The position numbers and the translations under genes are program-made. A DNA stretch of 64,000 bases from Blasia pusilla (taxonomy: Eukaryota). The notes beneath the pieces are model-generated. The model was not told the DNA's origin, ran no database searches, and was given only the letters and a program-made list of their open reading frames with translations. Below, in pieces: positions 1-53,400 of the stretch (the stretch's first letter is position 1; every line of letters begins with the position of its first letter). The DNA is taken from positions 14,570,001 through 14,634,000 of the forward strand of contig CM114271.1 in assembly GCA_050084515.1 (NCBI GenBank), read 5' to 3'.

Positions 1-545
1 TGAGCACCGCTCCTAACCCCAACATACTCCAATCCGAAAGGATCTATCCCCCAAATTGTCTTATTCCTGTCCTCCACTCGGATGGGCAATTGATGATAGT
101 CAGCGCGGAGATCCAAACAACTGAAGATCCTTGCATACCCCACTGCATCAAAGATCTCCTCGGGAGTAGGCATAGCAAAGCGATCGACCTTCGTATGCCG
201 ATTGATAAGATGGTAATCCCCACACGTCCACCTATCGGTCTATTGGCCATGCATGTCCTTCTTCACCGGCATAATTGTGGCACATGCATACTCTCCAAGC
301 AATCTCCACACAAGTCCAAAGTCAACCAAGTCTCGACTCCTACTCTAAATCAAGGCTCGCTACATGCCAGAATATGTGGAGGGTCGTCGAAAGATTGGAG
401 TATCACTATCCAACTCGATCCGAATACCTGGACACTTCATTGTACCCAAGTCGTGCATACTATATACAAAAAAGTCCTTGAATCTCCACAAGAACTGCAA
501 CACTCGTCTCCTCTCCGCTCTTGTCAACCTAGGACCTATCACCGA
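1..545 (-). pseudogene. Ty3/Gypsy reverse transcriptase, N-terminal part (stops and frameshifts)
   Basis: GIRIELDSDTPIFRRP, then YACATIMPVKKDMHGQ*TDRWTCGDYHLINRHTKVDRFAMPTP, then ARIFSCLDLRADYHQLPI. These match the conserved Gypsy RT motifs xKKD..R.C.DYR.LN and LDL..gYHQ. Confidence 0.88.
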
Positions 546-834
546 CTCCCAAGTTTCTCTCGTGACCTATGGAGAATCGGAGGGTGGTGGTTGCTAATTG
601 GAAACCTCTAGAGCAACAACATGCGCTCCCAACTCAGAGGCCAAATCTCTAGGGACTCCACTATGTCTTGCATCAACGAAATGAACTCCCGTCTCTCTAT
701 GCTCTCGTGATATGTCCCATGAAGTCCATGGATGCCTCTCCATCACCATTGCGCCCCCAGCCAGTGTCTCGCCCATCTCGGTAGACGTTGTGCTACAAAG
801 TGGATGTAATGTCACAGATGCCTCTCGCATCCGT

Positions 835-1815
835 TGTTGCTCAGCCAAACCAAGACTAAACACCCAAGTAAGACACTTCAGGTCCATAGTCTGACCCAAC
901 ACTTGTTTACGGGATGCCTCTGCCATCATAGGCACCATCGTTGTACCTCTAGAGAACCCCATAGCTTGCACTTGCTCGTGAGCATTGGGCTCCATCAGTG
1001 TACTTTCTTGTTCATGCCATATCATGCTTGGTCCTAGCTCCGACGAAAAGCATGAGATGATGGAAAACTCACCAACATAGGAAATGTTGCCCTTTGCTGG
1101 CCCACCCGATTGGCCACTGCCAACTATGGTACATCATCACCAGTAACAACTTGAGATCTCCGCCTTGGATCCAAGATCGCATCCACTATAAGTAGTGATA
1201 GTCTCTGGACTCCATTGTAAGCCCACCTTAGCAACTTGGATGGTAAAAGGTTCATCCACCACAATCGTGGAAGGTGTGCGCACAATCCAACACTCGCCGC
1301 ATCCAACATCACCGCCAATCCTATCCACGACCGCACTTGATGTACACTTTCCATCACTCAGGCTTGCGTGTGACCTAACAATGGGTCATTCTCTAAAATG
1401 TAGGTTGGAGAACATCGCTAGGTAGTCTACCAGTGTCGAAGAACTCGCAACATCTCCCAAAACATGGCCAACCTCGGGTCTTGCAAACCAAGTCCTCGAA
1501 CCGCCAAAGAATGACCCTAACATGGCCACCCTTCCACCACTAGGTGTATTAGACCAGCCCTATCCAGATCTAGTGCCCCCAACAACAAAATGTTGGCTGG
1601 AAATACATATTGATATCCCTTGACTGTAGACATTGGCAATAACGGAGGATACTGCAGGACTAGTTTCGACACATGATGTAATGAGATTCTACGTGCAGTC
1701 TCATCTCTTTCAAGATACAAGTACTGATGTACTTGTACTCTGGCCTACAACAATGCAGCCAATGATGTACTAATCCCTCCAAAGAGATCCAGTATACGTA
1801 CACTCTCCTCCGGAT
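835..1815 (-). pseudogene. Retrotransposon-encoded C5-cytosine DNA methyltransferase catalytic domain (pseudogenised)
   Basis: Motifs in canonical order: I VRILDLFGGIST (~1770-1803), II YLERDETARR, IV LVVEGWPC*G (catalytic PC, ~1515-1545), V LQDPR, VI YILENDP (~1383-1403), VIII AHLPRLWWMN (~1250-1285), IX-X EPNAHEQVQAMGF...RKQVLGQTMD (~880-995). Confidence 0.88.
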
Positions 1816-2189
1816 ATTGCCACACAATCAGTGTGGTGTACAAGGGTGTCAACGTCTCCACTCCTAGAGCACGTGGTAACTCTGTCCCGTCTCACTCTAG
1901 AGCATAAACTCGGCTCCACGCTTGCCTCATGAGCTCGTCTACTCTCCTCTGCAAATTGATGCTCGTTCCCCAAAAGCTGAAGAAGTGTCGCCAACAAATG
2001 TAGCCACGCTCGTCATTGCATGTCACTCCTCAAGACTATCCTCTACACGAATATCCTCTACATCGCCGTTCTCCTCCAATAAATCTCCAAGCCAACAGAA
2101 TGTGCCACAATAAGCAGCAACTGTTGTGGTCGACCCTTGGAGTGAACCATCAAGTCTCCTTGCATACTACACGGGTAGTTGATTGGCTC

Positions 2190-2700
2190 GTCCCTCACTT
2201 GATTGCCAACCTAGTCAATAGGATGTTGTCTCCTCCCAAAAGTCAAGTGTGAACCCTAGAGGATACAATGCAGTTGCCCCTACCAAAACATCATAAGACT
2301 CGGTCGGTATCACAACCACTCGCATCCGCACCATCGCACTATCCGTAGGATGATCAGGCTGAATCCTCACTACAATCTCATCGCGAGTCATGAATTGTGT
2401 CGGGGATGTGCCTCCCAGTGAAGTCTGAATCAAGAATGGACATGGAGTGATCTCACACTTCCGCAATCCCATTGCTACACATGCCGCCTTCCCTAACATA
2501 AGGGTTTGTGCTCCTGAATCAAGTAGCACTCTCTACGGTCGATACACGACTCCGGATGGACCAACCAACTGAAAAACTCCATCTTGGTTTTCCAAGACAA
2601 CAACTCTTGGTGAGACGGTTGCACGCTCTATTGCTGGTCTAGCTGGAAACTCCGCCACTTTAGCCGCTGCTACATGCCAACTCTCTGTAGACCTCATGGC
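2190..2700 (-). pseudogene. Retropepsin (aspartic protease) of the Gypsy element
   Basis: VLLDSGAQTLMLG (DSG active site) ... YDVLVGATALYPLGFTLDF (D-x-L-x-G motif); ORF 2215..2529. Confidence 0.85.
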
Positions 2701-2706
2701 GAGTCT

Positions 2707-4639
2707 TATTGAGAAAAAAGTGGTTTTAAAAGTTATAATTCAAATTTATGAGGCAACTCATACCGCTAATAGCTTGAAGTAGTTTTCTCTTGCGAATACT
2801 AAGGAATTCCGAGATATAGCCATTCAAATAGCCCAACTCATGGTATGTATAACTTCTTCTATGGTTCCATACAAGTATAGCAAGACCGATGGGCATTCCA
2901 AACGGTCTCTTTCTCGTCGAGTGCTATGCACCTCTCCCTCTGATCTTGTGCTACGCACCTACAATCAAGATGTTTTCTATGTTCCGATCATCCTTATGTA
3001 TATGCTCAACGGTGCTTCGTGCCTTTACTTATTTTATTACTGCGTTATATTATTCCGACAACCCCTTGTATCAGCTTGGATTCTGTCAGAAAATCGCGGG
3101 GCCTTGTCGGACAATATTTTGGTTTTGTGGTGTATGACAAAACAAAGTTCTTCTTTGCATAGACACCATGACTTTTCGTTCTGCTAGTACTAAGAACGTG
3201 ACGCCTAGTAATTGGGGTATTATAATTCCAAGTATCTTAGCGACAAGACCAATTAGATAACTTCTCATATTTTTTGGCTTTAAGATGGCTTATCAAAAGC
3301 TTTCTCAGGAGCGCGTGTCACACATGGAATTATTAGGAAATAGTCTATAAAGGACGTGTATTATTTTTCCTCATAGATTTCGTCCCAAGCACTTGCTCCA
3401 AGGGTACCTCTGCCACATCTCCTATGCGAGTCCCGACACTAGAACAACCAAACTCATCACTTTCATAGAGCATCGCCGCCAACCGGAAAACCTCAGCTCG
3501 TCAACCTCCACATGTGAACAAATCTTTGGCCGTAAATAGTGGGACGCTACATAAAGCCGTCACCATGTCTCGTAACATGCTAGTATTAGGTTGTGTCGAA
3601 TGCTGCATAGGTCTGGTAGATGTACTCGCCTAACATGCTTCTCTAATTGAAGCGGCATCTGCGACAACAACACTTGTCGCGACCCTCATGACCAAACAAG
3701 TGCCAAGCGGAACATCGGAACATGAGCAGGCTCACGCTAAGATGGTTTGCGCGTTGGAGTTGTCTCAAAGAAGAGACAAGAGACAAGACGCGAGCGAGGA
3801 GTCGCGTTTCAGGTGTTATGGTCGCGACTGAGAAACCTGGACCAAACGCGGAATGAGACTTGAAAGAAGTCGAGTCTAGGAAGTGGGTTGCCAAAAGGAA
3901 GATCCGGATTTGGAACGCCACTAGCGTTTGAGAGTTTCCTACTATATTTATGGCCATAACTTTTAGCGCCAAGATGCATTTGGAGCAAATAAGGGTGCAT
4001 TGGAAAGCTTATGGAGAGCCGGTCCAAACGCACAAAGATCGCTGCAAACGCATAAGCAGCGGCCGAGATACAACCCGAAAATGACTGTAAGTGGAGTCGG
4101 GTTGAGGGCCACAATGAAGGGCCCGACCCTCTTTTCCCAAAGAGGAGGGGTTATTGGAGAACCCCAGAAGTACTAGTAAGGGGGAAGGTCTCCGAGAGTG
4201 CTTGGAACCCAAACCCCACTTTGGGCGCCGCGGGGCGGCTTAAGGGCATGGAATGGAACGCGAGTTTGGGCGTTGGGTTGGAAAACCTGCACCAAGTCCA
4301 TTGAGGCGATTTTAGACATCCCTCTTGGTACTCACACCGCGACTCAATTACTTGGGTCTCGGTTCGGAACTCACCCGAGGACCGTTGAACAGTTGGGATC
4401 GCTAGGCGCGCAAGGGCCGTTTCAGATCCCTGGACTAACCAGGAAGTCTGTTCCAAGTCTTGAAGGACTTGCCATGTTTTGGAAGCTAGGAACTAAGGAA
4501 GGTTGAGCTTGAGGAGACGCCGAGTTGAGGACTCGGTGGGTTGGAATGCCGGTTGACCTAAACCCGACTAACGAGAGTGCGTGTTTGGGTGCAGATCGGC
4601 GATGAGTTCGTGACCTACTGAACGCACGCTTCCGCAATA
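2707..4639. mobile_element. ~1.9 kb non-coding, LTR-like insertion interrupting gag-pol
   Basis: The gag-pol reading stops abruptly on both sides. The insert starts TATTG and ends CAATA (inverted termini). No TSD was found, so the boundaries are tentative and it may be composite. Confidence 0.45.
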
Positions 4640-6270
4640 CTAAAGATTGACGTTCAAGGATAGTAGGGGCGCGACAACACTCCTCAAAGGCCGTAGATGG
4701 GGTCCGAAGAGCCTTCGACAATATGAAAGATTGGGGAAGTCTAGCTTGTCTGCCAGCTTCTCCCCTATGGGGATCCAACTTCACATCGGATCCTCGTGGC
4801 TCAAAAGCTCTCACTGTGTCTCTCGTAACCATTGCATCGGCATCCACTTGTGCGTTGTTGCACAAAAATCCCATACCTCCTAGATCTCCCACCATATCCT
4901 AGGCTTGAGCAGATCTAGAAGTTGACGTGCCCCATGAACCTGATGTAGATGCCTGCTTGGCCGTCATCACCTGAAGGCGTTGCTCCAACTGAACAATCCT
5001 TGCCAAAGTTGCCTCTGATGTAAGTGATGCACTTGCTCTGGCAGGTGGTGGGGTCCTACCTCCACCATGTCCTCGACCTCCTACACCTCGGCCTCTACCA
5101 CGTCCAGGTCCTTGACCTCCCTCTAGGCGCAGCTCGGGGTGGAGCTCGAAACATCTCTCGCGTGTTTTGCCCATATCTCTGGCAATGATCACACTAAGTT
5201 AAGGGTGGTCTCCCCTAGGCCGTCTCACATACAGTTCATGGTGTTGCTTGCAATCCACTCTACTATTTACAATCTCGCTCACGATGTGATCCTCCACACG
5301 TCCAACAAGAAATACCTGAGCCTTGTTGCCCAACATATGACTAAATTGATCGTGGTCCTAGCTCCCGATATCCTCATGTAGCCCTTGATCCCATGACTCT
5401 ATCTCGACTAGTGCGCTGTGGTATTGATGGAGACACCGTCACTCATGTCGTCTCCTTCAAAGATGACGTGCCTATCGTCAAAACTCTCTCCTCAAGTACG
5501 TTGAGCTCAATCCACTCTGCCAACAAAAATACAGACTTGAGAGTAGGCAAACCAACATGTAAGAGAGTTGCATCTCGCACTCTCTTGCAAAATTCTCGGT
5601 CTAGCATCGCATACCAAAATTGAATCGCTCGCACCTCCGTCACATCGTGAGTCATTGTAATCAATCGTCAAAGCCGTGCATAGGCCTCTCAAAGACCCTC
5701 CCCCGCTCTCCGTTGAAACTCATGAATTGACTCTAGCTTGTCGGTCCTCATCCCCTCGTAGTTCCTCCCCAACTCTTGGAAGAACTCAACCAACGGGTTG
5801 AACGCGGGTGGTATACGGCTGGTCACACTCGTAAGACTCCGGTCGACAACTCCTCGAAGTGTCTCCTCCATGCGGTTAGTGGGTGCTATTGTAGGCGCCA
5901 CATCATACATCGCACGCCCTATGAGGGACACATATCCTGGAGACCAAAATAATCTCCACGCCTCGATCTCTACCTCATGGAGAATCCAAAAGTCGTGATA
6001 ATCATCCACGGGAGGGCCCTACAGATGCTCAAAAAGTCCCTTCCATGCCATAACGGGGTCGAATCTCTATTGGTTCTGCATCCTCTATGCATCACACCAA
6101 CTATCAAATTCCTCCATAAAATCATCCAACTCGATGGTTTCCACCTTGAGACTTATCGGGGTCCCCTCATGGACCCATACATATCGCGATCGTTCATGTC
6201 CTACAACAACGGTGTGGCGACACTCGTTGGCCTCTCCAGTAACTCAAAATCCATTGACGTTACCTCAGGA
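4640..6270 (-). pseudogene. Gag of the DNMT-bearing Gypsy element
   Basis: Capsid-like segment KLESIHEFQRRAGE, zinc knuckle CWTCGGSHRERDC (~5268-5310), second knuckle remnant RERCFELHPEL, and a GRGRGRG low-complexity tract. Confidence 0.75.
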
Positions 6271-7127
6271 GGAGGAGCGGTAAGAGGAGAGGAAGAGAGG
6301 AGAGAGGAGAGAGGAGAGAGGAAGAGAGGAGAGGAAACTAGGGTCAACCAAAATAGATACTTTTTTTTGGAGAGAGTTTCCGTTGGGTTGAAGAGAGGAA
6401 AATTTTTGTTTGAAATTTTTTGCACTTTTTTGTTCATATATTAAGCAGTCCCACAGTTTTTTTTTTCCTCTTCCATATTTTGGCAACCCCTCTGAGTCCG
6501 ACGAGTTGCAAATTGCACAAAATTTAGAAAACTGAAAAATCAGTGGAATCATAAGTGTGGAACCAATCACTTTTTCCATCCAAGGTCTGGAAAAATCATC
6601 ATTTGCCCGGGCTGAATAGAGTTCAAGCTCAAAGTGAAGGTTGAGAAAAAAATAAAAGTACAATCTAAAACCTCATTTTGCATCCTCAAAGTGGTTTGTT
6701 TAAAATACTTCGAACTTCTTTAAGGGACAGAATTGGTTGGTGGATTCCTAGTCCTACCTCCGACTCTCTTAAAACTACCAGCAACACATAGTACATGTGC
6801 TTACAAGGGAAATACCTTTTGCCACTTGTCTCTCTTTGGACAAAGTCATCACATGAACATGTGGGAAATCAACAGATGTGCACCACATACACCCCTGTGA
6901 CACTTGAATTTACAGTGTTGTTCCTGACCCAATACATCCTACATATTCCATTGCCACTCAAGACATCTTTCGTGGCGATGATCTCCATTTTTTCCTCCCG
7001 AGCTGATGCAATTCGCTTTGCTCTCTCCACCGTTGGCTTTGCACATTCTATTTCTCTTCACCCCATTTCTAGACTCAAACAGAAATAATGGATTGAGATC
7101 ATCCACCTTCTCCGGTACATGTTGACA

Positions 7128-10100
7128 TCAATCTTGGGTTGAATACGAAATGCGAAGTCTCTCAGAATGCTGAACATGCTCCGAACTTCCCCTGTCTACG
7201 AGTCTTAAACGGGCACTTGTAAGATTGTCCACTTCGTCTTGAGTGCAGTTCGTGCCTGCAGCGATGGGCCAAATCGTGGGGGTATTCCCGGGAGCTCCAA
7301 TGGCAACCGGATAAGACTTCCGGAAAGCGCAAGATTCATTTGGGCAGAAGAAGTACTTCAATTGATCCCTGGTCCTCGTGAAACGATCAAAGGTTTTGAG
7401 TCCCCAAAACCCAGGCAAGTGGTTGTCCATCCTTGTACGATTCTTATTTAGGAAAGTGCCGCATGCTCTCCTAATGCCATCAGATCCTGCCTGCAAGTGG
7501 GTCCACATCCTGGGTTGCTCGAGATATATGCCACCGTTTTAGGTTGCAATCCACCTCCATTACGAGAATCCCATATTGTTGAACCACCCCAAAGGTGACG
7601 GAGGATCTGCGAACTTCCAAAGAACGGAGGGCTTTTGAAATAAAACATTCACTGATTTTGAAGAAGTAACTCCATCACGGATTTGGGACGGGTCCTGGGT
7701 CCCCGAATACCTGGGCGGCGTAATTTCCTCATCCAAATCAATCACCAGATTCGTTTCTCGATGCTGCCTCTTCACCTGCCTGAAGTCAAGATACTTATCT
7801 GGTCTCCACGAGTCTCGCTCGGACTGCTCTACCACCATCTGTATGGGACGTCTTGAAACCCGCCCACGAATATCCCCGCCAATGTGTAAGTCTTGCTCGA
7901 GCGGAGTTCCAGCTACGCACCGGTTGAAGGCTTCCACATACATTTTTTCATCACGAGATCTCACAGCCGCCCTGACATAGAACTCGTAGATCGACGGCCC
8001 CTTTCCTTTTGTTATGCCTTTTGTGAGGAAGATATGGGATGCTGCAGACTGTAGCATTGCTCTTGCCTGGTCTTGTTGGCATGCCTCCACAAGTGAAATT
8101 CGTTGGCATGCTTGTGACCACCTCCAGGAGGAATGAACACTTTCTGCTCCACTTGTGTTGGGGCAGAGGGAATTTTCATGAACGTTCAATCCCTGCAACG
8201 ACGGCAATGTTAGAAGGGAACGAAAATAACTCAGCAGTCAAAGACATAAGCTACCTGTCGGAACCAGATGGGTTACAAGGCCGAGGAATCTCATGAACGA
8301 CTCTGCAACCCGTCGGGTCCTGACGTGTTGCAACCCTAAACCCACCTACTGCAACCCGTCGGATTCAGACGGGTTGCAAGGCCGAGGCATGCCATGAACG
8401 ACTCTGCGACCCGTCGGGTCCCGACGGGTTGCACACTCGGGCAACCCGTCGCATCCGACAGCTTGCTTGGTTTCTTGGGTTTGAAATCCATATAGTTCCC
8501 ACGCTTCTCACCATGAGCTACAACTTTACAAACAATTCTCAGCGTGAGCTTGACAAGACAAAATAGTGAACTCACCTGCCGCATGAAGTTTCCCCATTGT
8601 CTCATACGTACAGTCCACCAACTCAACCAAGAGCACAACTCTTTGTACTTCCCCTCAATCGCATGCTTCCTCCACCTCCCATGAAGTTCTTCCTGGCATT
8701 CCATGGCATGCTTCAAGGTTTTGTTGTCCTTGCAGCGTTGGAGTATAGTCACATGCTCTGTCCTCTTATTCTCCTTGATGCAAGATTTGGTGTACCGGGT
8801 CACAGACTGTTGCCAATGGAAAGCATCTGACCTTTCCCTCTCTGGTTGAACCTCTCCACCCCAGAACACTTCCCGGATAGCAATCCACCCAGGTTGTGCA
8901 TTGTCCGCCATGAACCCATAAATTTCCGGAGGTGGCCTTTTGTTTTCCTTCACCACCTCCAATAAGAGTAACCAACACATCTTCAAACTCCCAACGTCTT
9001 CTGCCTTTACTTCACAGACAAATATAGTTTTGAGTCCCTTCTCCACATGGTCATAAACGTGAGCACCCATCGTCAACCATCCGTTCAAAGACTCAGAGCA
9101 AATATCAAAGCTTACCCGGCTCGTAAAGATCTTCCCCTTCCCTCATTCGATCTATAAGATCGAGGCCACTCGACGGACCTATGGTTGACATTTTGAAGAC
9201 ATAGGCCCAGGATCCTTCGCCTCCTTGGCCCATGAACTGCCATCTCTGAATGAATGGAAATCTGGAGTTGGCCTTGATTATGGCGATGGCATCCATTTCA
9301 GCCGTCTTTCCATCCAAAACTCATATTTGACGCAGCAAATTTCGGAAGCATTCAGGATCAGTGAGAAATGCGAGATTCTCCCAGAGTTGTTTCTCCTCAA
9401 CCGCCGTAATCTCGCCCTGTCCCGGGATTCCAAGCAATTGTTCACAAATTTGTGATGCCGTTGTGAGCTTGATCACTCCGGGCTTTGAACCCGGAGAGTT
9501 TCTGTAGACTTCGGCTACTTTCTTCGCCACATCCTCCTTGATGTGTCTTTGAATTGCATCGGTCACAAGATGAGTGTGGGAGCCAACATGAACTGCCAGC
9601 CTTGTGTACTTTGACGTGGAGCCAAAGTTATGGACAATGAAAAATATGTATGCAGGACACGCTCCAACGCAGAATGGCGATGCCTGACAATGAGGACATC
9701 GATGGCCTCCCGGCGGTATGGTGGCACCGACCTCGTATGGAGTTTCTGCATTCTTGGGAAGGAATTGCGACGTATTGACTCGCTCGTTGCGCTCTAGATA
9801 CGGGCATGCTGGACTTCTACACTCCAAGGCTCCCACGCATTGGCGGCAGGAGACAATCCAAGGACCATCTGGAATTGAAGCATTGGTCCGTTGAAGCCTG
9901 CACCATCGATGACAATCAGACTTTCTGTCCATACCCTTCAAGCGTCCTCCATCCTTCTTTTGAGCAGGAGCAGCAAGTGGAGGTAACTCAAAAATGCAAT
10001 TACCATCGTACGTGGGCGGCAGCTCGTCGACAAGAATGTGCTTGAATATTTTCAAGGCCAAAGACGAAAGCAAACTATTGCCGGATACTCGCAAGAGGAA

Positions 10101-10372
10101 CGAGTAGGCGGATAGAGGGTCCGATTGGTGTCCGACAGATCCACTGAGGTTGATAACATCGGGAATCTCTTCAAGAAGAACATTATTCTGGCGTGCATGC
10201 GGTTGGAGTCGGCCGGATCTGCAGAGCTTGGAGTTGCAAACGTAGAGCTCGGAGCACTAGGAAATTCTAGACCGTCCACTTGGGAAACAGACGAGTTCAG
10301 GGGCAGGCCGTAAACTCTATATTGACCATTTGGTAGAGGTAGGAGATTCCATACTTTACGGTCTGAGGTCAC
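7128..10372 (-). pseudogene. MULE-type transposase with N-terminal GCM/WRKY-like Zn-binding domain (frameshifts; intron 8193-8575)
   Basis: Cys/His domain CRQCVGALECRSPACPY...RCPHC...HVGSHTH (9321-10094). Candidate catalytic residues: D1 in RVSFDIC (~9100, after a frameshift), D2 in GFMADNA...AIREVF...AFHWQQS, and E in PNTSGAESVH after splicing a phase-0 GT-AG intron. Ends in a Cys-containing C-terminal tail. Confidence 0.8.
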
Positions 10373-11575
10373 TGGCTGGACCGTCTCATCTATTATGTCT
10401 CCGTATCGTCCACCCTAACATCTTTGGATACAAAGATGGTTCCAATTGGAGAAGAAATCGAATGCATGTAAAATTTTCATCCACTTTGCTATGAAAGACT
10501 CACGAGCTTGGGGTCGAATGATTTACGATTGAGGAAGGGGCCAGATGATAGCGCCACAAGTGAGCTTATCATAATTATCCATTCCAAGAAGATTCCAACG
10601 GGAGGAGACTGAGAATGAGAATGAGAATGAGAATTAATTTATAGTGAATAGGAAACAGATACTCTCGATGATTTTTCTTGACAAGATGAATTCGGTGGGT
10701 GACATTTATGCGACACAATGGATCCAATTCTGTAACACATTCAATTCTGTTGCAATATGTTACCGTATTTGGGAAGCAGAGGGTTGCGCATCACACTTGG
10801 AACCCGTCGGAGTCCTGGTAACTCAAAAATTACCCGAAGCTAACCGAAGCCTGCAACCCGTCGGCATTGGAACGGTTGCACGGTTCTGCTAAACATTGTC
10901 AAAGCGAGCAACCTGTCGCTCTCCGACGAGTTGCTCGGATACGGCTCCTTCTTGCCCGAAGATGCCGGAGGCGTGCAAACCGTCTGTTCCCGACGAGTTC
11001 CGCGGGTGCCTCACCTTTTTGCCCAAAGACGGCAAGGCGTGCAACCTGTCGCCCTCCAACGGGTTGCGCAAAGTCCTCGCCTTGTGGTGCAGCCAGCCGG
11101 ACTCCGACGACTTGCACAGGAAGCCCTCCTTCTTAACCCTTGATGAGGGAAGCGTGCAACCCAACGGTCTCCGACGGATTGCCCAAGATACGTCCCGTTC
11201 CCGTCCCAAACACGGCGGAGGCGCGCAACATGTCGATCTCCGACGGGTTGCGCGGGTACCTCGCGTTCTTTTCTGAAGACGACGGAGGCGCTCAACCCTT
11301 TGGTCTCTGACGGGTTGATCCCGCACGTGGCAACCTACCCAGGATGGCGGAGGCGCGCAACATGTCGGTCTCCGACGGGTTGCGCGGGTACCTCGCGTTC
11401 TTTTCCGAAGATGACGGAGGCGCTCAACTCGTCGGTCTCCGACGGGTTGCTCGCGCACGTGGTGACGTACCCAGGATGGCGGAGCCGCGCAACCTGTTGG
11501 ACTCAGACGGGTTGCGATTTTTCACGTCCGGACTTCCGTAACATCCGGCACGTCGCCGTCTAAAGAACGACGGGA

Positions 11576-11612
11576 CCCAACGGTCAGCCCAACGGCTAGA
11601 AAAGTATAAATA
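11576..11612 (+). promoter_or_regulatory. Core promoter of the ParB-MTase gene: two tandem MSA-like elements plus TATA box
   Basis: CCCAACGGTCA (11576-11586) and CCCAACGGCTA (11588-11598) both match the MSA consensus YCYAACGGYYA. TATAAATA at 11605-11612 is followed by a pyrimidine-rich initiator region, ~300 bp before ATG 11905. Confidence 0.65.
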
Positions 11613-11904
11613 GGGCAGAAATCGCTCATTTCCGGTTTCTCATTTCGCGATCTTCATTCCTCACTCTCCCGCGCAGCAGCTGATCAGATACGAAGGGGCA
11701 TTTCACACGGCGACACATCGCGAGTCAATAGGAGGGAACGAGAGCGAGACGGTTCGACCGAACGACAATGAGACGGTTCGACTGAGCAATCGCGGGACGA
11801 TTCGAGCTACCCATCAAGGCGATTCAAGCTCCCCATCTTGACATCAACAAGGCGACTGATCAAGGGATTTGTCGTGGACATAGGTGGAGGCATTTCCGGA
11901 AAAA

Positions 11905-14900
11905 ATGACGAGGAAAAAATCACAAGCCAACAAGTCTGGGAGCTTCACTCCAAAGTCCATTAGGACTCCTGCGTCAACTTCTCCTGGGCCTCGTTCGGCG
12001 AATGAAATTAGGCAACAGGAAATCAAGGAGCGGGAAAGGGAAGCGGAGATGCACAACCAAGTGCTTCTTGCGAGACGTGTTCAAGAGGCGCTAGATAAAC
12101 AGAACGCAGAGGCTGAGACGTCGCAAGCCTTGAAGAAAAGGATCGCCGACGAAAAGAGAGAAAAGAAGCGTCTAGACGCGTTGATGAGGAGGGCAGAATT
12201 GGCTAAAGCGAGAAGGGAAAAAGCAATAGCCATTGACGATAGCCCTGCCCGTCCAACCGCAAGTGTTGAGATGCGGGAAATGTCCCCCACGAAGTCCGGG
12301 GACACAATCAACATAGTGGAAACGCCAGAAGTTGAAATCGATGAAGACGAGGTCATGAGGACCGCCAGCGTGGAGATGGTGCACATGGCCGAAGAAGCCG
12401 GAGAGCGGTCATTCTCGACTCCAAGCCCGGCGGAGGACATCGACCTCTATCGGATCGACGAGTTCCCAGTCGATTTGCCAGCTTCTGGCTTAGACAAGTT
12501 AGCTGGTCAAGAAACCGACCCCATTTTCGAGCGGGTAAGAGAGGATCTGGGTTTTTTGAATTATGTGAATTGCAATTCATTGGGAATTCAATGTAGCTTA
12601 TTCATCTTGTTCGATTTCGACGGTGGTAAAGCGAGATGGCACTCATGGAGGGCCACAACGCCGAGGATTCCACTCTACCGATTGCGGACAATGGAATACG
12701 TCCGCGAAATTCCATCCGCGAGGACATCGCGAAGCTTAAACAATCGGCGGCGCGACAAAGATCCTACGTCGACAGCTTTCCTCCCTTCTATGTTCAGCCT
12801 TACGACGAGCATGGAAACCAAGCTCTGGTTACGGAGGAGGACTTGGAAAAGCTCAACACATTCTGGAGGATGCAAGACCAGGATTTCAGAAGGCAAGTTG
12901 AGGGCACGGAATTCAGCTGGATGAGGAATTTGCATTTCTTCATCTGGGATGGAAATCACAGGTTCATGGCGTGGACCAAGTTTGCGGAGGAGCGGCCCAA
13001 CTCATTGGAGGCACATTTATGCGTGAAGGCAGTGGTCCTTCACCCATTCCCTCATCACATGGCGACGGTGGAGATGGCAATGCATGCCATGAACACGTGA
13101 GTATCTTTAACACTTACGCAACTCGTCGGACTATGACGAGTTGCTCGATTGATGAATGGGTTAGGTTTTTTTTTTCCGAAAGCAACTCGTCGGAATCCGA
13201 CGGGTTGCTCGACTGCACGCTATTTCGGATGTTTTTTTAAGAATGCAACTCGTCGGACTCCGACGAGTTGCTCGATTGATGAATGGGTTACGTTTGTTTT
13301 TGCCGAAAGCAACTCGTCGGACTCCGACGGGTTGCTTGACTGCACGCTATTTCGGATGTTTTTTTAAGAATGCAACTCATCGGACTCCGACGAGTTGTTT
13401 GATTGACCACAGATTTAATTAGTTTTTGGCCCAAAGCAAACTGTCGGAGTCCGACGGGTTGCTCCACTCGCCGCCTTGTCAGGATGTTTTTGGAAGAATG
13501 CAACTCGTCGGACTCTTACGAGTTTTTTGACTGACTGCAGGTTTAGAATATTTTTTCCCCAAAGCAACCCGTCGGAGTCCGACGGGTTGCTTGCCTCAAA
13601 ACTATTTTTGGCCGAAATCAACCCGTCGGAGTCCGACGGGTTGCATTCGGAAGTTGGTTCCCCAAATTTCGCATCAAATTGTAAGTTTACATTCAATTAT
13701 GCAACCTGTCGGACTCCGACGGGTTGTTATGTTCACGTTAGTATGTTCAGTTGAACAACCCGTCGGAGTCCGACGGGTTGAAACCAGGCATTAGCAAATC
13801 TGAATGCAATCCGTCGGACTCCAACGGGTTGCATCATTTAGCTCGTTGCTAGAATCCGACCTTGAGTTGTGACGACCCGTCGGAGTCCGACGGGTTGTAG
13901 GAACCCATGTAATTTCCTGACGGGTTGAGTTTGGATGTGCAGGATTGTATCGGAGGGGAATGTCACCACCTGGATCGGATCGCGATCGGGTGAGGAAGGT
14001 GCTTATGAGCGCACCGGGAGAGTCTGATGGGTTTTAGGCGATGCCCTTGTCAATCGATGCTTGCAAAGGGTGCTCAGTTATTAAAAAAGAAAACTTGGGC
14101 AAATAAGTTTATTTCCCAAGATGCAGCCGTAACCATCCTTTCTTTGGTCGAAGATACAAAGCCGCAAGAAAAGCGCCAGACCGAGTTTGGAGCCGAGGGA
14201 GAAGGTATCTGCATCTAAGCGCTCAAAATTCATCCAAGCTGCAGTATCTGCAGCAACGAAATACACGGCGAGCAAGATGCAGCGATACATGAGCATTCTC
14301 AACCCCGAACTTGGTTCGGAGTTCTATAAGGAGTTGAAGACGATTATCAAGCGCCAGCAGAAAAGGGATGAAGATCCGCATGGTCGGATTGGGGAGAAAG
14401 TGTCCCTGGATCGCGTGCATCGGTTTGCGTTGTCCGGCATAAGCGAGTTTAGGAGGATCCGACTGATGAAAATCAGTCTCGAGGGCAGAGAGGCCCAGAA
14501 GAGGGCGGCACACCATCCTCCGGGTGTGTCTGATCCAGTGATCTCCCAATGGCTACGCGAATGGTCGTTCTGGGACGCGTTGCGGGTTATCGGGAAGTCC
14601 GTGGTGGAGGGTCTGCAAGCAGAGCTTAGAAGATTAGAGCCCATCCCGGATGAAGCAAACCTTGAAAGTTCTGGAGATTTCAAGGTTTGGCTCGACGACA
14701 TCCGGGACAAGCCAACCAAAAACCCATGATTCAAGACAATGTTCAAGGTTTGCGTCCTCCCTCAGGCACAGCTTGACAAAGAAGTAGAGGGGAACAAACG
14801 GGATCAAGCGAAGAAGAAGCGAGATCTACAGGAGCACGCGGCCGATTCTGTTCGATTGAAAGCTGCCCAGAGGATGGTCTTCAGGTACCTCGTCCAGTGT

Positions 14901-16833
14901 AAGAATGCAAGTAAGTGGGGAAAATTACCGGCAGCCTTGAAATTGTGGGCTATACCGCCGGATGCAGAGACATTCTCCATGTACGACATGGAGATGGGGC
15001 AGCACCTGTCCGATTGGGAGGTGGAGAATTGCCCCATTTGGCTCGACTTCAACGATCCTGAAGACATCACCGATAAGGATTTACGAGTGCTTCATGGTGC
15101 AGTGGCCTCAGGACAAGACGACATCCCCAATTTCGCCCGGCTGAAGACTTCTTCGGAGGAGATGCAGAAGAAGCAGGCCCACGAGGCAGTGAGTTGGCTT
15201 CCAAGGTCCGCACAGCCAAAGACAAATCCAGAGCGGGTCTCAAAGGCAAGGCGAGGGGAGGGAAAAATTCAGAGGCCGAGTCTTCCCAAAGAGAGGCTGA
15301 AGATTCAAGGCGAGAGGCGGAATCGTCCGGGCGAGCGGGGAGAGAGGGTCGGACCAGGTCCTCGGCGAAAAAAAACCCCACGAGTCTAAGGTCATAGAGA
15401 CCCGACAAGCCGTCCATGAGACTAGGGAAAAGCGAGCGAGAGGTGCGGGTTGTCCCAAGGATAATACAATCCATCATCCTTGGGAAGACACAGACAAACA
15501 ACGACCCGGACAAGCGTCCTCCTTGATTCACTCCTTTCTTGGATGAGTGAAGAGCTTGATTCTCAGCGTCGACACCAACCATCGAAAAATTGACAACGCT
15601 GGGACGGAAGCTCCAACGAAACGGGCACGCTGCCTGGACGGTGAATGGAGTGGTCGAAGAGGTTGCGGTGGATCTCTTGATCGCCGATCTGCCCTAGGGG
15701 TTGCGACTTTGGGGCGATAATCCGTCGGATGAGGTACCTGAGTGGAATGTGCCGCTCTCTTATGACCAGATTGCGCTTTTGTTCTCCTTTGCAGATGCCT
15801 ATCTGAGTGACAGGGGCTGCTTCTTGGTGTTGACTGGAGGGAGCGAGGACGAGCTCTTCAACCTCCAGTGCGTCAAGAGGTCACTAAAGTGGAGGACGGC
15901 GCAATCGTGGATCATAAAAAATGAGTACCCACTCCGATCCGCGACGAGTCAGATTCGGGTAAGGCTCAATTCCTGTACTATAATGAGTATAATGAGTGTC
16001 AATCTGGGTTTTTTTTGTCCATGAGCAACCAGTCGGAAGGCGACAGGTTGCTGGCTTAGAGCAGCCCATGCTCGGCTGAGAGCAACCCATCGGTTTCTGA
16101 CGGGTTGCATCTTTCCCACATACACAGGGAAAACCGCGGTGTACCTGCAACCCGTTGGAACCCGACGGGTTGCAGTTGCTTTTGGTTTTTCCCAGTTGCT
16201 TTTGGTTTTTGGATGCAACCCATCGATAGCGGCGGGTTGCTCTCGGCGAGCATGGCTGCTCTAGGCGACAACCCGTCGCCTTCCGACGGGTTGCTCACGG
16301 ACAAAAACAACAGAGCCCGACGGGTTGTTTTAGTCCCTAACCAACCCGTCGGAAGGCAACGGGTTGGTCCGGGACAAAACAACCCGTCAGACTCCGACAG
16401 GTTGATCCAAAGTCAGTTATTGAAAGTTTTCTCAAGCTGACTTCTTTAGTTTCTGACATTGTTTCCAACGTGTTGATTTCTGAGATGGACCACTCCCTCG
16501 TGTCTTTGCCCGTTCGGCCCGAGCACAATTTCGGTGTTCAAGATCCAGGATCCTGTGGATCCATGCTCGGATGGGTCTGACTTAGATAGTTTGTACAATT
16601 CCCCGGGAATTTACATGCAAGACACTACCCCACTTCTGGGAGGAAGGGAAAAGTCGCCAGCCCTGATGCAAACGCTCATCGAACTCTGCTCAAGGCCGAG
16701 TGACTTGGTGTTCGACTTAGTGGGACTTTCAGGGGCAAGTATCAAAGGCGCCTGGCAGAGTGGGAGGAACATTCTCTGCCTCGAGGGAAGGCAGGAACTG
16801 TTTGACCTTTGCAAGGAGGCAAAGCGAATCTGA
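11905..16833 (+). pseudogene. Transposon-borne multi-exon gene: coiled-coil N-terminus + ParB/Srx-like domain + beta-class N6-adenine/N4-cytosine methyltransferase domain
   Basis: ParB/Srx motif FFIWDGNHRFMAW (ORF 12636-13100). Amino-MTase catalytic strand VDLLIADLP*G (15668-15700; the stop replaces W/Y of a DPPY-like motif), then LSDRGCFLV. SAM-binding half REKSPALMQTLIELCSRPSDLVFDLVGLSGAS...GRNILCLE (16534-16833). Likely introns 12535-12596, 13097-13942 and 15959-~16484. Several stops and frameshifts. Confidence 0.72.
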
Positions 16834-19800: not shown

Positions 19801-20346
19801 TCTTTCCATCCCTTTGCAGAGAGAACCCAACACAACTGAGGAGCGGAATGGGAACTAGAGTTCTGATTGCCTCCTTCCTATCCTCTCCAGCTTCCTGCAG
19901 AGAAGACCCACAAGTGAAGAGCACAATAGGAACTAAAATTCCAATTGCCTTCTCACTTCACTTCCCTACACCACCGCACTCTGCCACGCCATAGTAGTCA
20001 ACTGCAGTTGAGACGCTCCATTGTTCTCCAACTGAGATAGAATTGGAACTTGAGTTCCAAATCCTCCTTGCTCTCTTGTCCCTCCTACTGCACCAATCTC
20101 TGCTACGCCATCAAGATGACCACCATGCACACGCCTTCACATGCCGCCCTACGCCGCACCTGATAGAAAGAGCCGCACCCACTTGATCAATCTGCGCAAT
20201 AGGAACCAGAGTTTTGATTCTTCCTCCTTCCTCTTGCCGTGCTTGAAGAAGAGCCGCACCCCACTTTAGAATCCGCGGAATGGGAACTTGAGTTTGGATT
20301 CTTCTCTCCTTCCTCTGAACGTCGTGTTGAAACTGAGAGTATCGCC

Positions 20347-20652
20347 TATTGAAGATTGAGTTATAGTGAAGCTCATGAGACACTTGAACTGCTATATTTG
20401 GTAGTCACATGAAGTAGGGAAGCTAAATCTTGGTTAGTCAGTTAAGCGCGATTATCTTAATTAGGGTTAGTTAATCACAGTTAGTCTAACTTGAGACTAA
20501 GATTAGGGTTAGGGTTGTTTGTATATACCCTATATAATTGAGAAGGGGACCAGCTTCCACTCATTCTCTCATTGCAAATTTCGTTCTCCATGGTGATGTA
20601 TGTGTGTGAGAGCCATTTTCCACCAATTATGCTTGTTTAACAGTTTTCCACA
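20347..20652 (+). repeat. Copia 5' LTR
   Basis: TATTG...CCACA; about 25 mismatches (hand count) to the 3' LTR. Confidence 0.95.
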
Positions 20653-25346: not shown

Positions 25347-25646
25347 AGATTGAGTTACAGTCAAGCTCATGAGACACTTGAACTGCTGCATTTGGTACTC
25401 ACACGAAGTAGGGAAGCTAAATCTTGGTTAGTCAATTAAGCGCGATTATTTTAACTAGGGTTAGTTAATCATAATTAGTCTAACTCGAGACTAAGGTTAG
25501 GGTTAGAGTTTCTTGTACATACCCTATATAATTGAGAAGGGGACCAGCCTCCACTCATTCTCTCATTGCAAATTTTGTTCTCCATGGTGGTGTGTATGTG
25601 TGAGAGCCATTTTCCACCACTTATGCTTGTTTAGCAATTTTCCACA
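25341..25646 (+). repeat. Copia 3' LTR
   Basis: Direct repeat of 20347-20652, preceded by the PPT and followed by the TSD. Confidence 0.95.
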
Positions 25647-47800: not shown

Positions 47801-48950
47801 GAGAAATTCTCTATTTAGCTAGTTTTGGAGGTGGAATTTATTGTCTGCGGTTTTTTTGTGGATTCAAGAGCGCAACCCTTCAAGTTAGGGAAGGTAGGAT
47901 TTGAGAATTTAGACCTAACTTAGATGTATATTAAGCATCGTTCTTTCAAGATTCACACATCATTGGCTTGAGCTAATACAATGAAATTCATCACCCAAGA
48001 TAAAGTAGTGGTGAGGCTTAGACCAAGACATCCAACCAATGAGTTAGTGATTGTCGTAGAGTCTATGCTCTAATTCTCCTAGTGTCACATCGGAGCTCTC
48101 CCTAACTTGAGCTTTGCAAGCGGAAGACTTAGTTGGAGTCCAAAAGACTCAACTGGTTGAGCGTTTGGTAAGTAGCTAAGAAGCCACCAAAGACTAATCA
48201 AAGCGAGTCTTCCCAAGTACGTAGTGTCTCCCTAGGGGGACTCTTCCCTAAGCCTTGACCAATCTCCCCAAGTTGCTCATCTAAACCAAAGCGCGTCGAT
48301 TAATTCCGCAAGGTGCGTCGCTTAGCTAAAACTTGAAATACGACCAAACACGCATCACACTTAGTTCATGGTTCAAGGGCTTGAATGGGTAGAGAGAGAG
48401 TGTGTCTTCCCCTATAGGTACTTTTGGGTTTCTACGAGGGTACCCCACCTTCTCCATTGTTCCCCTCGTGCATTTGATTTTGGCCCTCAACCCAAACATG
48501 GTTTGCAATTCCATTAACCAACGTTTAACTATTTATACATTAAGATGGTCGAGTTGAAGCTTCTTGCAATTTTTGCTACTCTTGGATTCCAAAATGCATC
48601 TTAGATCTCAGACGTGAGTTTCATGTCTCATAGCTAAGGCCCGCCTTGACTCTTCATTTGGCATCTCATGGTTGACTTGTCACCCTTTACGTTTCGCAAC
48701 AAGTCTCATGGCGTCTCGCCCCTCTTGACTACTCATGCATTACTTACTTCTCATCCTTAACTTGGCGTTTGGCTCCAAGGTCTAAAACCTTACTTCCCTT
48801 GGCTTTGTCCGCACGAGTGAAAGAGAGCCCAAGGAGAAAAAGTTTGAGTATTTCAAAGCTTCAAAAAGAGTGGCACATGTCAATTACCTACAAATCGAAA
48901 AGGATAGATGTCAATAAGGAGAGATGGCACTCCTATAAGGGCACTCTCCC
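44815..48950. mobile_element. Degraded LTR-retroelement-like sequence
   Basis: Abrupt start at TGTTG after a GC-rich block. CpG-poor and stop-riddled, with LTR-like texture similar to 3800-4640. No clear domain or partner LTR identified. Confidence 0.35.
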
Positions 48951-50449
48951 ATAATAATAATATATATGAGGATCTTGCAACGTTTGCAAAAGCACCAATC
49001 TTGTTCTCTAGCTTATATTCTTAAGAATAAAATGTTGTTGGGTGACTCTCACACATAAGTGGTGAGGAGTGTACACCAAGTTTATCCATGGATCAAACCA
49101 AGAATATTTTTGGATATGGTGAATTTAGGTTCACTTGCACGCCACCTATACCTTTAATTAAAAAAATTGATGCCACATGAGATTTTGAAGAGGACGTATG
49201 CGAGAGTGGAGAAACCCTCCCATTGGTTGGATAATTCCATTTTGGATCTAGATCATTGATCACACGTAGTGAGGCATGACGATCAACCTCTATTGACATT
49301 GGTCAACAAGGTTAGCATGCTATGGGCACACACTACTATATTTAAAAAAATTGCAAGTGCCAACAGCCATAAACCATTCGCAACAAAATGGCTACATAAA
49401 GGTAAGAAAATTGCAAATTTATGAGTGTGGTAATGCAACATAATTACATGACTATGATTTCACACTTCGCCCCTACTTCACAACTTGGAAGTGTCGTATT
49501 ATTAAACTCGCAAGATGGTCACAATGACTTGCAAATCAATTACAACACAATAAAAAATAGCCACAACACAACTGCCTTGAACTTGCACTTGCCTTGAAAA
49601 GAGCATCTAACTTATGAGTATGTATAGTGGCAAATGAGTTGCAAAAACACAATGGCAACGTATTTGCAAAGTAGTGGTTTCTTGCCATCTCAAACTAGTT
49701 TTTTCTGTTTTGGGGGGCTCTATTTGGACTCATATTTTGGTCTATGAAACACATTTTTGAGAGAGGAGGGGGGGGAGGGGAGGAGGAATATGTTACCTTC
49801 CAATTATTTCTTAAGGATTGATTTTATTTTACTCCTTCAATTCAACATTTTTGAATAGAAACATAGAAGAAAATGAGGTTCACTTAACTTCACTTATCAA
49901 CATGTCCCTCAATAGAAAAGAAAATATTGTCTTTTAGTGGGATTTTAAAGCAAAGTTTAGAATTAGCTACACTATAGAAAGAAAATGGTTGCTAGGTGAA
50001 AAGAGAAGTGTTAGAAAGTTTGGAGGAAAAGAAAAAATAAAGCTGATTGGAGGCAAAAGAGGAATTTATGGCCAAGAATTATGTGATGCGACTCACACAG
50101 TAGTCGCAATTTACAAGTTCCAACACTCACGAAGTAGTTGTGAGTTGCAACTTTATTGTGAATCTCGTCATTCTTACTTTGCAAGTCCATGCATTCACAC
50201 TGTGTGACTTCATGGTGACTTGTAGTTGCAATGTCACATGTGGCTACCTTACTGCTTTCTTGTGATTGCTATGACTTGCAAATAGCTTTCGAGTGTTGAG
50301 AATCCCAAAACATTAGAGACTCAAAAAATTATTGTTAGAAAAAAATATGTGGCACAACTTGCATTTTCAAATTAAAGTTGCAAAGAAGCCATAAAGTTAT
50401 AAATTGGACTTGCAAATCAGTGGCAAGCAAAAGAAAATCCATTGTAGTG

Positions 50450-53400
50450 AGAACTATTGGCGTTGGTGAGTTTTCATGCCTCTTATGTGTAGAAGGAAGG
50501 CAATATTTTCTTGGTTTAAGATGATTAGGCACACAAATTAATGGAGCCCAACATTGATGAATGAGAGCGCGTGATGGGATTTCCCACAAGTTTGACAACA
50601 ATATTATTTTTGTCAAAGGTGTCTTAATGCAATGTTCTAGGTCAACCAATGGAATTGAATTTCTTGACAAAGATTGTGAGCATATGAATAGAGAAAAGTT
50701 GAATCCAATTATGAGATATAATCTCAAGGGACTTGTTAGACCTTTTACTATTGAGGTGATATAGGTAGTTATTGGGGGTTAGACTAGAGGAGATCGATAG
50801 ATCAAAGATGATTGGGAGAGATATCCATGGACTTCTTGGGATCAGATGTTGGTGGATCTAGAGATGGGAGTCATTGCACTTAGCATGGTGCATGGTTCTA
50901 CATACCAAGGAGCACTAGAAGGATAGATATATAAATTAATTATAGATGATAAATTGAGTAACATTGTTACTAACAGGGTTGCACAATAGAAGGCCATCCG
51001 GCCCACCCCTATGTCAAAGAAATATTATTTTAGTTATGATGGAAACTTAGGAGCTAAATAGCGGGCATAATTTGATTAGAGAAGATCAACATCAAGTAGA
51101 TCCCTTCATAGGGAGTTACAAGAGTTATATTTCATTTAATATGCATCATTTGGGTACACCGAAGGGTCAAATAATCCGTATTGATTTGTCTATGGGTACA
51201 TCAATATTTTAACAACCCAACATGTATAGTGAGTGATATGGAGAGAGAGCCCTAATTTAAAGTTAGAGCTAAGGCTTAAATGAGGTAAGATAAGTGGAGA
51301 TCTCATATGGATGTTATACATGTGTCATACTCACATCTGCCAAAAAGTATGTGCATGGAAATTGGACTGATTGGAAAATATATCAATATATAAATTGACA
51401 GAGAAAGCTTGATAGATATATAATTCCCACTCTTGATTATGAAGAGATCTTAAATATTATTTGGCATGCAAAGGTATTTGGCTCATTTATTAGATCTTTG
51501 AGCTAGATAACATCAAATTCTTATTAGAGTGGAAGACAAATAAAAGACAATATTTTGGAGCACCATTGATCCTCATGGGAAGGATTGTTTGTATCGATGG
51601 AGGCTCTTACTATTTGGATTAAAGAATGCCCCAACAGAGTTCTATAGAGTCATGGTAGGATCTTTGTAGTTTTGGACTTTGTTAGATATTACATTAATGA
51701 TATTGTAGTCTTTAGCCCTATAGTTGAGATACATAAGCAACATCTTGCGGAGATACTTCAACACTTATAATTATATGGGCTAAAGCTATATCTAGGCAAA
51801 TGCACGTTCCGTTGTGGCCGGATTGAGTAGTTGGATCATATGTACCAAGGTGGACTTGGTATTCAACAGATGGAGATAGAGGCTCTCTCATGGATACCTA
51901 TAGATATGGATCGAGTTGGTGTGCTCATGTATGGGATTGGAGAACTTCTATCAACGTTACTTAAAGAGATCCAGTATAATTGCAAAGTCTCTTATCTTAT
52001 TGATGAACGTGAATGATGAGTAGAAATGGGGATATAGTTGAGATATCGATGTTACTTCCTCAGTAATCCATTTACTCTTATCATTGATCATATCAACCAC
52101 TAAAATGGTTGATGGAGTCCAATAAACTTACAAGAAATCTTGGCAAGTTTACTCCGTCATTACGCAATATAATTTCTAAGTGATATATCAATTAGGAAAA
52201 CTCAGCCAAGATGCATCTGTGTTGAGTTTTAACATATGGTAGAGTCAGCTAGATGCAAGTAGAGCTCGTTGGCATGATGAGAGTAATGAGGAGATAGTTC
52301 CTAAATGACAAGTATGCATAACCTTATTCGGGCTTGTTGCCCACAAAGGGCAATATCGCATCAACTCCGATATGAGGTCAGATGAAGAGTCCTTAGATCT
52401 TGAGGCTACAAAGAAGGTGATAGTAAGTGACATGCTAGGAGGATGGGATATTCTTGGAGTTCTTATATACGTACAACATAGTGGACATAATGGGTATGAG
52501 AGCAAGATTGGATCCTACAGGGAGTAAGATGATTCAACTGGCAGGGGATACATCCATATTTTATGAGTTTGGGAGGATGGTAGAATATGAATGATGCTTC
52601 ATCCTTCGTAAAGAGCCCAACCAATGCAACATGTCCACAAGGAGTTGGGATATTTTGGAATAAAATTGAGTGAAACATAGATGTAAGCATGTTCTCAATA
52701 AGCAAGGATGTTTACAAGAGACATATTTATGGCATTCAAAAACTTGGATATTGCACAACATTAAGACACATGTGTGGATGGACAAGGAGATTACAGATTT
52801 GCAATTTTTTGGTGTCATTTAGAAGACTATATCTACTTACAGTTAAACCTACAACATTGGATATTACAACAAAGTGCACTATCTTGAGAGTGAGTGAGGT
52901 ATTGCCATTTGGTGTTATATTTGTAGAAAGATATGATGGTGTAATTTGGAAATATTGTATGCATAATTATGCGTAATGTTATCTTCTTAATATTGGTATG
53001 ATAGGTGATCTAAGATGGGTAGTGGTACTTACAAGCTTGCAACGTATGTTGTTTCGATTAACGAGAGGTAAAACTATAATGCTAATTTATGATGGACTTT
53101 CAACAGGATGGCATATAGAAATTTTGATGCGACATTTTATTATAGTTCCTCAAGGATAATAGATGTATCCCAGATATGCATAAAATAGGCACCTAGACAC
53201 TTAGATTTGCTCAAGTGATATGGATGAAAGAAAGATGATTAACGATGAGGCCACATGAGCATCCAAGCATCTAAGCATCACATGCATAGAGGGTTATGTA
53301 TGAGGTAATCTCACAAATAGCTAGGTAGACATAGGTGGCTATGTAGAGTTAGATGGACCTAACCACCAATTATGGGTTGCTTGGAGATATTTTGGGAGTT

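Follow-up and report, generated by a model that had tools for sequence, protein, structure and literature searches.

A 64,000-nucleotide stretch of the Blasia pusilla genome (contig CM114271.1, positions 14,570,001 to 14,634,000; hereafter the window, in whose coordinates all features are given) very probably holds, at 6153..3 of the minus strand, a fossil Ty3/Gypsy-type long terminal repeat (LTR) retrotransposon in which a DNMT3-like C5-cytosine methyltransferase is placed between the protease and the reverse transcriptase (RT) of Gag-Pol. The METHYLTRANSFERASE type of the domain is DNMT3-like, as judged by sequence and predicted fold, and we hold with equal confidence that this domain is a heritable module belonging to a large green-lineage family of retrotransposon-borne domains. 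The kind of element is already known from a charophyte alga, and predicted proteins of related elements now place it in liverworts and mosses too.

In tblastn comparisons with relatives, the gag, protease, methyltransferase and RT start of this element (copy 1) are colinear on the minus strand. Gag, at about 4695..6153, matches residues 15-487 of a Marchantia protein (P0075) at 42-44% identity, and also P0007 and P0008, while the protease region at 1984..2682 matches residues 584-816 of P0075 at 48% identity. The motif LLDSGAQ is found in a stop-to-stop open reading frame (ORF) of the protease at 2532..2215; the match of the copy 1 protease to Pfam Asp_protease_2 (E 0.033) falls under the cut-off, whereas relatives exceed 24.3 bits (P0033 with 24.8 and P0093 with 26.3 bits). 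The methyltransferase follows at 1975..1037 and continues in a shifted frame at 1034..657. A linker and the N-terminal part of RT, at 3..551, match residues 696-830 of P0014 at 60% identity and are truncated at the window edge: P0093, whose RVT_1 begins at residue 1443, aligns as far as residue 1523, and an RT-like stop-to-stop ORF at 239..3 leaves the window, beyond which the remaining pol lies. The first-pass annotation, a reading of the bare sequence, had put a protease and an RT on the same strand as the methyltransferase and on either side of it, and both the LLDSGAQ ORF and the RT start at 551..3, which matches the RT of relatives, bear this out.

Methyltransferase motifs and DNMT3 affinity

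A family profile built from 19 aligned relatives (alignment A2) was used in a six-frame search of the window. In copy 1 it detects motifs I to VIII at 1037..1855 (profile positions 18-290, 290 bits, E 8.3e-90; translation P0001, alignment A1) and motifs IX and X in a shifted frame at 810..1040 (profile positions 289-365, 71.5 bits, E 1.9e-23; translation P0002), with a frameshift near 1040. The motifs, numbered and defined as is usual for C5 methyltransferases, were read from the two read-through frames of copy 1, with X at stops, and from alignment A1. All on the minus strand, they comprise motif I (LFGGIS, 1786..1769), motif II (YLYLERDE), motif IV (GWPC, with the cysteine codon at 1522..1520 and a TAG stop right after it at 1519..1517), motif VI (ILEND, in which ENV reads as END, 1393..1385), motif VIII (AHLPRLWWMN, 1279..1250), motif IX (EPNAHEQVQAMGF, 992..954) and motif X (RKQVLGQTMD, 911..882). 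The first-pass annotation had listed these motifs in order at 835-1815, together with a motif V; the profile match at 1855..810 agrees with that reading, except that motif V was not identified separately. The order is canonical and non-rearranged, which sets the family apart from DRM, described as rearranged in PMC5890265.

A protein search with the read-through translation returned six proteins; among the best are a 726-residue Logan protein (P0003; E 4e-82, 60% identity over 237 residues) and proteins from Calypogeia fissa, Sphagnum troendelagicum, Marchantia polymorpha and Sphagnum fallax. DNMT3A chains in the PDB match the same translation at E 0.0045. P0003, an intact relative, in turn finds DNMT3A best (E 3.6e-11), followed by DNMT3C, DNMT3B, DRM and M.HaeIII. 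When profile A2 was run on solved methyltransferases, DNMT3A scored 82 bits (E 3.6e-22), DNMT3B 77.5 and DNMT3C 77, ahead of DRM (46.5 bits), DNMT2 (39 to 40) and M.HhaI (34.6), and no DNMT1 chain was found at E <= 0.001. The predicted fold agrees: an AlphaFold model of the relative P0009 (mean pLDDT 72.9) has DNMT3A, DNMT3B or DNMT3C as all of its top Foldseek matches listed (E about 2e-19, TM-score about 0.75-0.83 by target length), and its best structural matches are DNA-bound DNMT3 chains. The likeness to the animal host enzymes DNMT3A/3B/3C covers the top matches in sequence and fold, an equal motif order, and alignable motifs I, IV, VI, VIII, IX and X; on the other hand, identity is only about 20%, and the family domain has neither PWWP nor ADD and is embedded in Gag-Pol.

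In the relatives, the predicted Gag-Pol ORFs carry an intact domain with the full DNMT3-type set of catalytic motifs. PCQ, ENV, AHR-R-WWTN and E-ERE-A-GF are nearly invariant across the 19 aligned family members, and all catalytic motifs are present in 5 of the 12 Marchantia models checked.

Architecture of related elements

The methyltransferase is integral to pol in relatives, as the first-pass annotation had proposed. Two single ORFs from assemblies carry the full order: P0093 (2358 residues) has the protease at 663, the methyltransferase at 953 and RT at 1443, followed by RNase H, integrase and a PHD finger at 2300, and P0097 (2374 residues) has a zinc knuckle at 558, the protease at 835, the methyltransferase at 1017 and RT at 1463, followed by RNase H and integrase. 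In the metagenome locus L053, an ORF at 976-5085 (1369 codons) holds protease and methyltransferase, and an ORF at 5086-8229 (1047 codons), in the same frame, holds RT, RNase H, integrase and PHD finger. The lone in-frame stop at 5083-5085 that separates the two may be read through or may have arisen by a single mutation. The full pol order is also seen in the Klebsormidium nitens protein P0104, whereas copy 1 has only gag, protease, methyltransferase and the start of RT within the window, to which a second copy (copy 2, see below) adds RT and then RNase H. Each of the 17 longer moss-type loci aligns colinearly with P0093, protease through C-terminus, and in L012 and L013 one single-frame match spans protease, methyltransferase, RT, RNase H and integrase. 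Because single uninterrupted ORFs carry these five domains in one frame, the methyltransferase is no nested insertion outside the pol frame, the outcome that the first-pass annotation had named as fatal to its reading.

Direct repeats of about 340 bp with 90-94% identity enclose about 8.4 kb in L010, L049 and L050, and L040 has a 159 bp pair, which makes 4 of the 17 loci; in L053, whose contig is 9.3 kb long, no terminal repeats were found. A CCHC zinc knuckle is found in P0097 and P0067 (zf-CCHC match) and, as CX2CX4HX4C in alignment A1, in P0007 and P0008. After the integrase, many relatives have a PHD finger (PF00628; P0093, L053, P0101, P0107, P0099 and P0106).

The position of the methyltransferase is not the same in all members. 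In one clade of the domain family (P0060, P0054, P0099, P0101, P0106 and P0107) it lies between RNase H and integrase instead of between protease and RT, with the PHD finger after the integrase retained, and in Cymbomonas P0115 the family domain lies just upstream of the integrase. The existence of two pol positions within the same domain family indicates that the module can move, and it either shifted within pol or was acquired twice.

Host range and domain tree

The domain was found in 21 gene models of Marchantia polymorpha, two of Calypogeia fissa and three of Sphagnum, a genus represented among the relatives by three species. Names are available for 25 of the 72 hits of the first set: 18 are from Marchantia, 3 from Sphagnum, 2 from Calypogeia and 1 from Closterium, and 1 carries the label of a bacterial metagenome-assembled genome. 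In the second set, 5 of 45 hits are named (3 Marchantia, 1 K. nitens and 1 Cymbomonas). No vascular plant is among these named hits (25 of 72 and 5 of 45), which is weak evidence of absence. The family comprises 557 clusters at E <= 1e-30, and its best 150 all score above 285 bits and are all of element type; one family cluster, among ten profile hits looked up, is a 'pol' protein of Scenedesmus sp. PABB004. The land-plant lineage postulated by the first-pass annotation is upheld by the Marchantia, Calypogeia and Sphagnum models, but not as a separate invention, since K. nitens pol is colinear and has the same order. Database records label such polyprotein pieces 'DNA (cytosine-5-)-methyltransferase', a name that could lead to too many host DNMT genes being counted in bryophytes.

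Sixty-four domain sequences were placed in a quickly built maximum-likelihood tree with midpoint rooting and without a host DNMT3 outgroup. Copy 1 groups there with all 14 named bryophyte rows, of which 11 are from Marchantia, 2 from Sphagnum and 1 from Calypogeia, in a clade of 19 rows (SH-aLRT 100). K. nitens belongs to a separate clade of 7 rows (SH-aLRT 100), and Closterium and Cymbomonas are found elsewhere in the family. End branches in this tree are very short (0.005-0.14), which suggests a recent amplification. In the Marchantia proteins P0075, P0012, P0076, P0007 and P0013 the domain is almost uniform, with end branches of 0.005-0.06, and 18 sequences fall in the 90% cluster of P0075, which again suggests that the element amplified recently in this model liverwort.

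These data could be read more broadly, as an ancient Gypsy family spread across chlorophytes (Scenedesmus, Cymbomonas), charophytes (Klebsormidium, Closterium), liverworts and mosses that would combine a 'writer plus reader', namely a DNMT3-like methyltransferase at two pol positions and a PHD finger, with young and catalytically intact copies in Marchantia and the window copy as one relic. We offer this only as a tentative picture, which is rather less likely to be right than wrong.

Relation to known systems

The closest known system is KnitGypsy-Dnmt3 of K. nitens, which de Mendoza et al. 2018 (PMC5890265) describe as a Dnmt3-related domain in a Gypsy pol ORF under purifying selection. In our searches the K. 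nitens protein KFL_009030040 (P0104) was found at E 4e-52, with the methyltransferase at 312, RT at 770, RNase H, and integrase at 1235-1401. It fits the description of the published element, of which it may be a copy, and shares with the bryophyte elements a Dnmt3-type, non-rearranged methyltransferase in a Gypsy pol ORF. The bryophyte elements differ in their hosts and in forming a separate domain clade. They also differ in their repeats: the paper (Fig. 4 legend) describes a DIRS-like arrangement for KnitGypsy-Dnmt3, whereas a search confined to simple direct repeats found plain ones of about 340 bp in moss-type relatives. A further difference is the C-terminal PHD finger of the relatives; the term 'PHD' is absent from the main text of PMC5890265, and the partial P0104 shows none. 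P0104 is colinear with Marchantia P0014, at 29% identity in the protease, 40% in the methyltransferase and 37.5% in RT-RNase H, in a comparison confined to elements that bear the domain.

Chromoviruses are Ty3/Gypsy elements with a chromodomain after the integrase. The relatives resemble them in having a chromatin reader at the same place, C-terminal to the integrase, but the reader is a PHD finger and not a chromodomain, and no PHD finger is recognisable in the window. Chromoviruses are mentioned in bioRxiv 10.64898/2026.05.21.726589, which also describes EpiLTRs of Cymbomonas and Euglena. These are likewise LTR elements that join a DNMT with other epigenetic domains, but their DNMT adjoins DNMT4 and sits at the 3' end of pol with an adenine methyltransferase. 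SymbioDIRS-Dnmt3 and SymbioLINE-DNMT of Symbiodinium (PMC5890265) are further retrotransposon-encoded C5 methyltransferases, the DIRS ones being of Dnmt3 type; by their published description, they belong to other classes, DIRS and long interspersed nuclear elements (LINEs), and to another eukaryotic supergroup.

Full-text searches of open papers turned up none in which such elements are named from any land plant, liverworts and mosses included; bryophyte copies may already be listed in the DNMT tables of the 2018 and 2025 papers. While citing the 2018 work, PMC12344493 and bioRxiv 10.64898/2026.05.21.726589 speak of 'streptophytes'. The useful additions made here are the land-plant range and the possibly young copies in Marchantia.

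Proposed action and alternative explanations

In intact members, the DNMT3-like domain would be made as part of Pol and would travel with RT and integrase. Using S-adenosylmethionine and its Pro-Cys nucleophile, it could methylate the double-stranded cDNA of the element, or the new insertion, de novo, and the PHD finger after the integrase may direct integration or methylation to particular chromatin. We give somewhat less than an even chance to the proposal that intact members methylate their own cDNA or insertion de novo; the window copies themselves are inactive. K. nitens is not strong as a genetic system. Marchantia is a land plant amenable to such work, for which methylomes and mutants are already at hand, and if its copies are young and intact, transposon-encoded de novo methylation would run in a land plant in which it can be dissected genetically. 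Methylation of the element's own cDNA or insertion has been proposed before, for DIRS elements, in PMC5890265.

A number of observations weigh against this proposal, or against parts of the reading on which it builds. No enzymatic activity is on record for any Gypsy-borne DNMT3: the only Gypsy-borne case tested, that of K. nitens, gave no methylation in yeast, a result that the authors call inconclusive (PMC5890265). Most genomic relatives are decayed. Of the 66 metagenome loci examined for stop-free frames (80 less 14 short ones), only four (L052, L053, L062 and L063) have a stop-free frame over the whole methyltransferase match. Constraint, which in itself speaks for the main reading, was estimated by pairwise NG86 ratios of nonsynonymous to synonymous change (dN/dS) among 17 decayed moss-type loci, and the medians were 0.59 for the methyltransferase (134 of 136 pairs), 0.39 for RT-RNase H, 0.51 for integrase, 0.85 for protease (52 pairs) and 0.64 for the C-terminal region. 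By these values the methyltransferase looks constrained about like the integrase; all the ratios are inflated by decay and drawn from non-independent pairs, and that of the methyltransferase indicates weaker constraint than in RT-RNase H. The domain tree is without a host DNMT3 outgroup, and a single capture is therefore no more than a hypothesis.

The same holds for some features of the window. Neither methyltransferase-bearing copy is flanked by a repeat pair in a self-comparison of the window, and neither has within the window a tRNA-Met-type primer-binding motif of the usual form; because of this, the label 'LTR element' rests on the relatives. The read-through translation P0001 reaches 14.6 bits (E 0.023) with PF00145, under the gathering cut-off of 22, and nine single ORF pieces of the window have no PF00145 match in Pfam. 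The first-pass annotation, which expected such a match, had said that its absence would count against a methyltransferase. Formally this applies to the decayed copy 1 but not to the relatives, because 5 of the first 6 of these pass at 27.7-46.1 bits; in a second set, 8 of 9 are at the 22-bit cut-off or have a listed match, and L053 scores 51.1 bits.

The alternative that best survives these data, one that we still regard as less likely than not, is that the intact domain does not methylate the element's own cDNA and might instead target host chromatin (in trans) or RNA, or play a non-catalytic part in the particle. The yeast result for the K. nitens domain would fit such a role, as would the weaker constraint on the domain (dN/dS 0.59) than on RT-RNase H (0.39), and RNA methylation has been raised for the LINE-borne enzyme in PMC5890265. 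However, the near-invariance of the catalytic motifs in 19 family members, all of which motifs are present in the 5 Marchantia models, argues for catalysis, and the top structural matches are DNA-bound DNMT3 chains. In addition, the DIRS-borne DNMT3 domains of Symbiodinium carry out de novo CG methylation in yeast, according to the same source (PMC5890265).

It is also conceivable, but quite unlikely, that the land-plant elements acquired their domain from a host DNMT3 in an event separate from that in the Klebsormidium Gypsy-Dnmt3 lineage, so that the resemblance is convergent. In favour of this, other clades stand between the 19-row bryophyte clade and the 7-row K. nitens clade, both of which have an SH-aLRT of 100; moreover, the module occurs at two pol positions in one domain family and hence can move. 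Against a second capture, the family profile gives 376.9 bits for P0104 compared to 82 for DNMT3A, the insertion point between protease and RT is the same, and the protease and RT-RNase H are colinear and similar.

We consider it highly improbable that the methyltransferase stretch landed separately in an ordinary Gypsy copy, whether as a nested insertion or as a pseudogene of a host DNMT3. Extra DNA between gag and protease in copy 1 shows that nesting occurs in this element, and about 1.1 kb lies inside the methyltransferase of copy 2. The order is nevertheless common to both window copies and is seen again in named proteins from Closterium, K. nitens and five bryophyte species, in the single ORFs of 2358 and 2374 residues, and in the 17 of 17 moss-type loci colinear with P0093. 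Finally, a chance resemblance of the motifs in decayed sequence can be set aside for all practical purposes, for although PF00145 reaches no better than E 0.023 on the window translation and the single ORF fragments have no match, the family profile (E 8.3e-90) and the 60% identity to P0003 (E 4e-82) point the other way.

Decay of copy 1

The read-through frame of copy 1 at 2011..1123 has 296 codons and 7 in-frame stops (five TAG and two TGA), five of which lie inside the 1037..1855 part of the domain. The next frame, at 1133..3 (P0002), has 5 in-frame stops, all TAG, of which four are in the 3..551 part. In alignment A1, 4 of the 7 stops of the 2011..1123 frame stand at positions where relatives have glutamine, which would fit CAG-to-TAG transitions. 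With seven stops, a frameshift and damage to two catalytic motifs, copy 1 is dead and unable to methylate. Depletion of CpG was considered as a mark of methylation-driven decay and was not used as evidence: the observed/expected CpG ratio of copy 1 (0.64) is like that of the whole window (0.69), and only copy 2 (0.41) is lower.

The extra DNA between gag and protease, at 2700..4690 on the minus strand, exceeds the relatives by about 1.7 kb, since residues 487-584 of P0075 (97 residues) span 4695..2682. Its observed/expected CpG ratio is 0.95, compared to 0.64-0.72 in the flanking element. It holds no recognisable domain, and a short homologous piece near 3500..3345 lies within it, where the ORF 3345..3500 reads VFRLAAMLYE, as in relatives. 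This DNA probably represents one or two later insertions.

A second copy and other features of the window

The second copy, at 47837-53156 on the plus strand, is more decayed and lies in AT-rich DNA (GC 0.376, observed/expected CpG 0.41). It begins with a weak protease trace at 47837..48034 (tblastn with P0014, residues 143-209, E 3e-4). Methyltransferase motifs VI to VIII follow at 48966..49313 (family profile, 61.9 bits, E 1.5e-20), and motifs IX and X at 50454..50696 (53.6 bits, E 5.1e-18), about 1.1 kb further on; the N-terminal half of the methyltransferase was found neither with the profile nor with tblastn. RT and RNase H extend over several frames at 51063..52293 (P0014, residues 701-1139), and tblastn with relatives detected no integrase. 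A weak match to the region after the integrase (P0093, residues 2228-2337, 27% identity, E 1e-7) at 52827..53156 translates with 8 stops and without anything recognisable as a PHD finger. A long palindrome of 560 bases, 93.6% identical to its own reverse complement, lies a short way downstream of copy 2, at 53856-54414.

The window contains other elements as well. A Copia-type element at 19525-26041 on the plus strand shows two direct repeats, 19525-20653 and 25341-26041, that are 89-92% identical over separate pieces, and it has a perfect 12-base tRNA-Met-type primer-binding motif at 20653-20664, the sole such motif found in the window; its polyprotein ORFs at 21528-25346 match Pol_BBD and RVT_2. 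On the minus strand, a run of long ORFs at 57634-60415, of which 59351-59749 matches RVT_1 at a sub-threshold 24.6 bits, is probably the remnant of a non-LTR retrotransposon. Rfam at the gathering threshold gave 0 matches in the window. Several long ORFs (198-472 residues) without a Pfam match are present at 8336-15389 and at 35884-37302 (minus strand), where the 472-residue ORF likewise lacks a usable ESM Atlas match, and tandem-like internal repeats are seen within the first of these regions, around 10900-11520 and 13118-13650.

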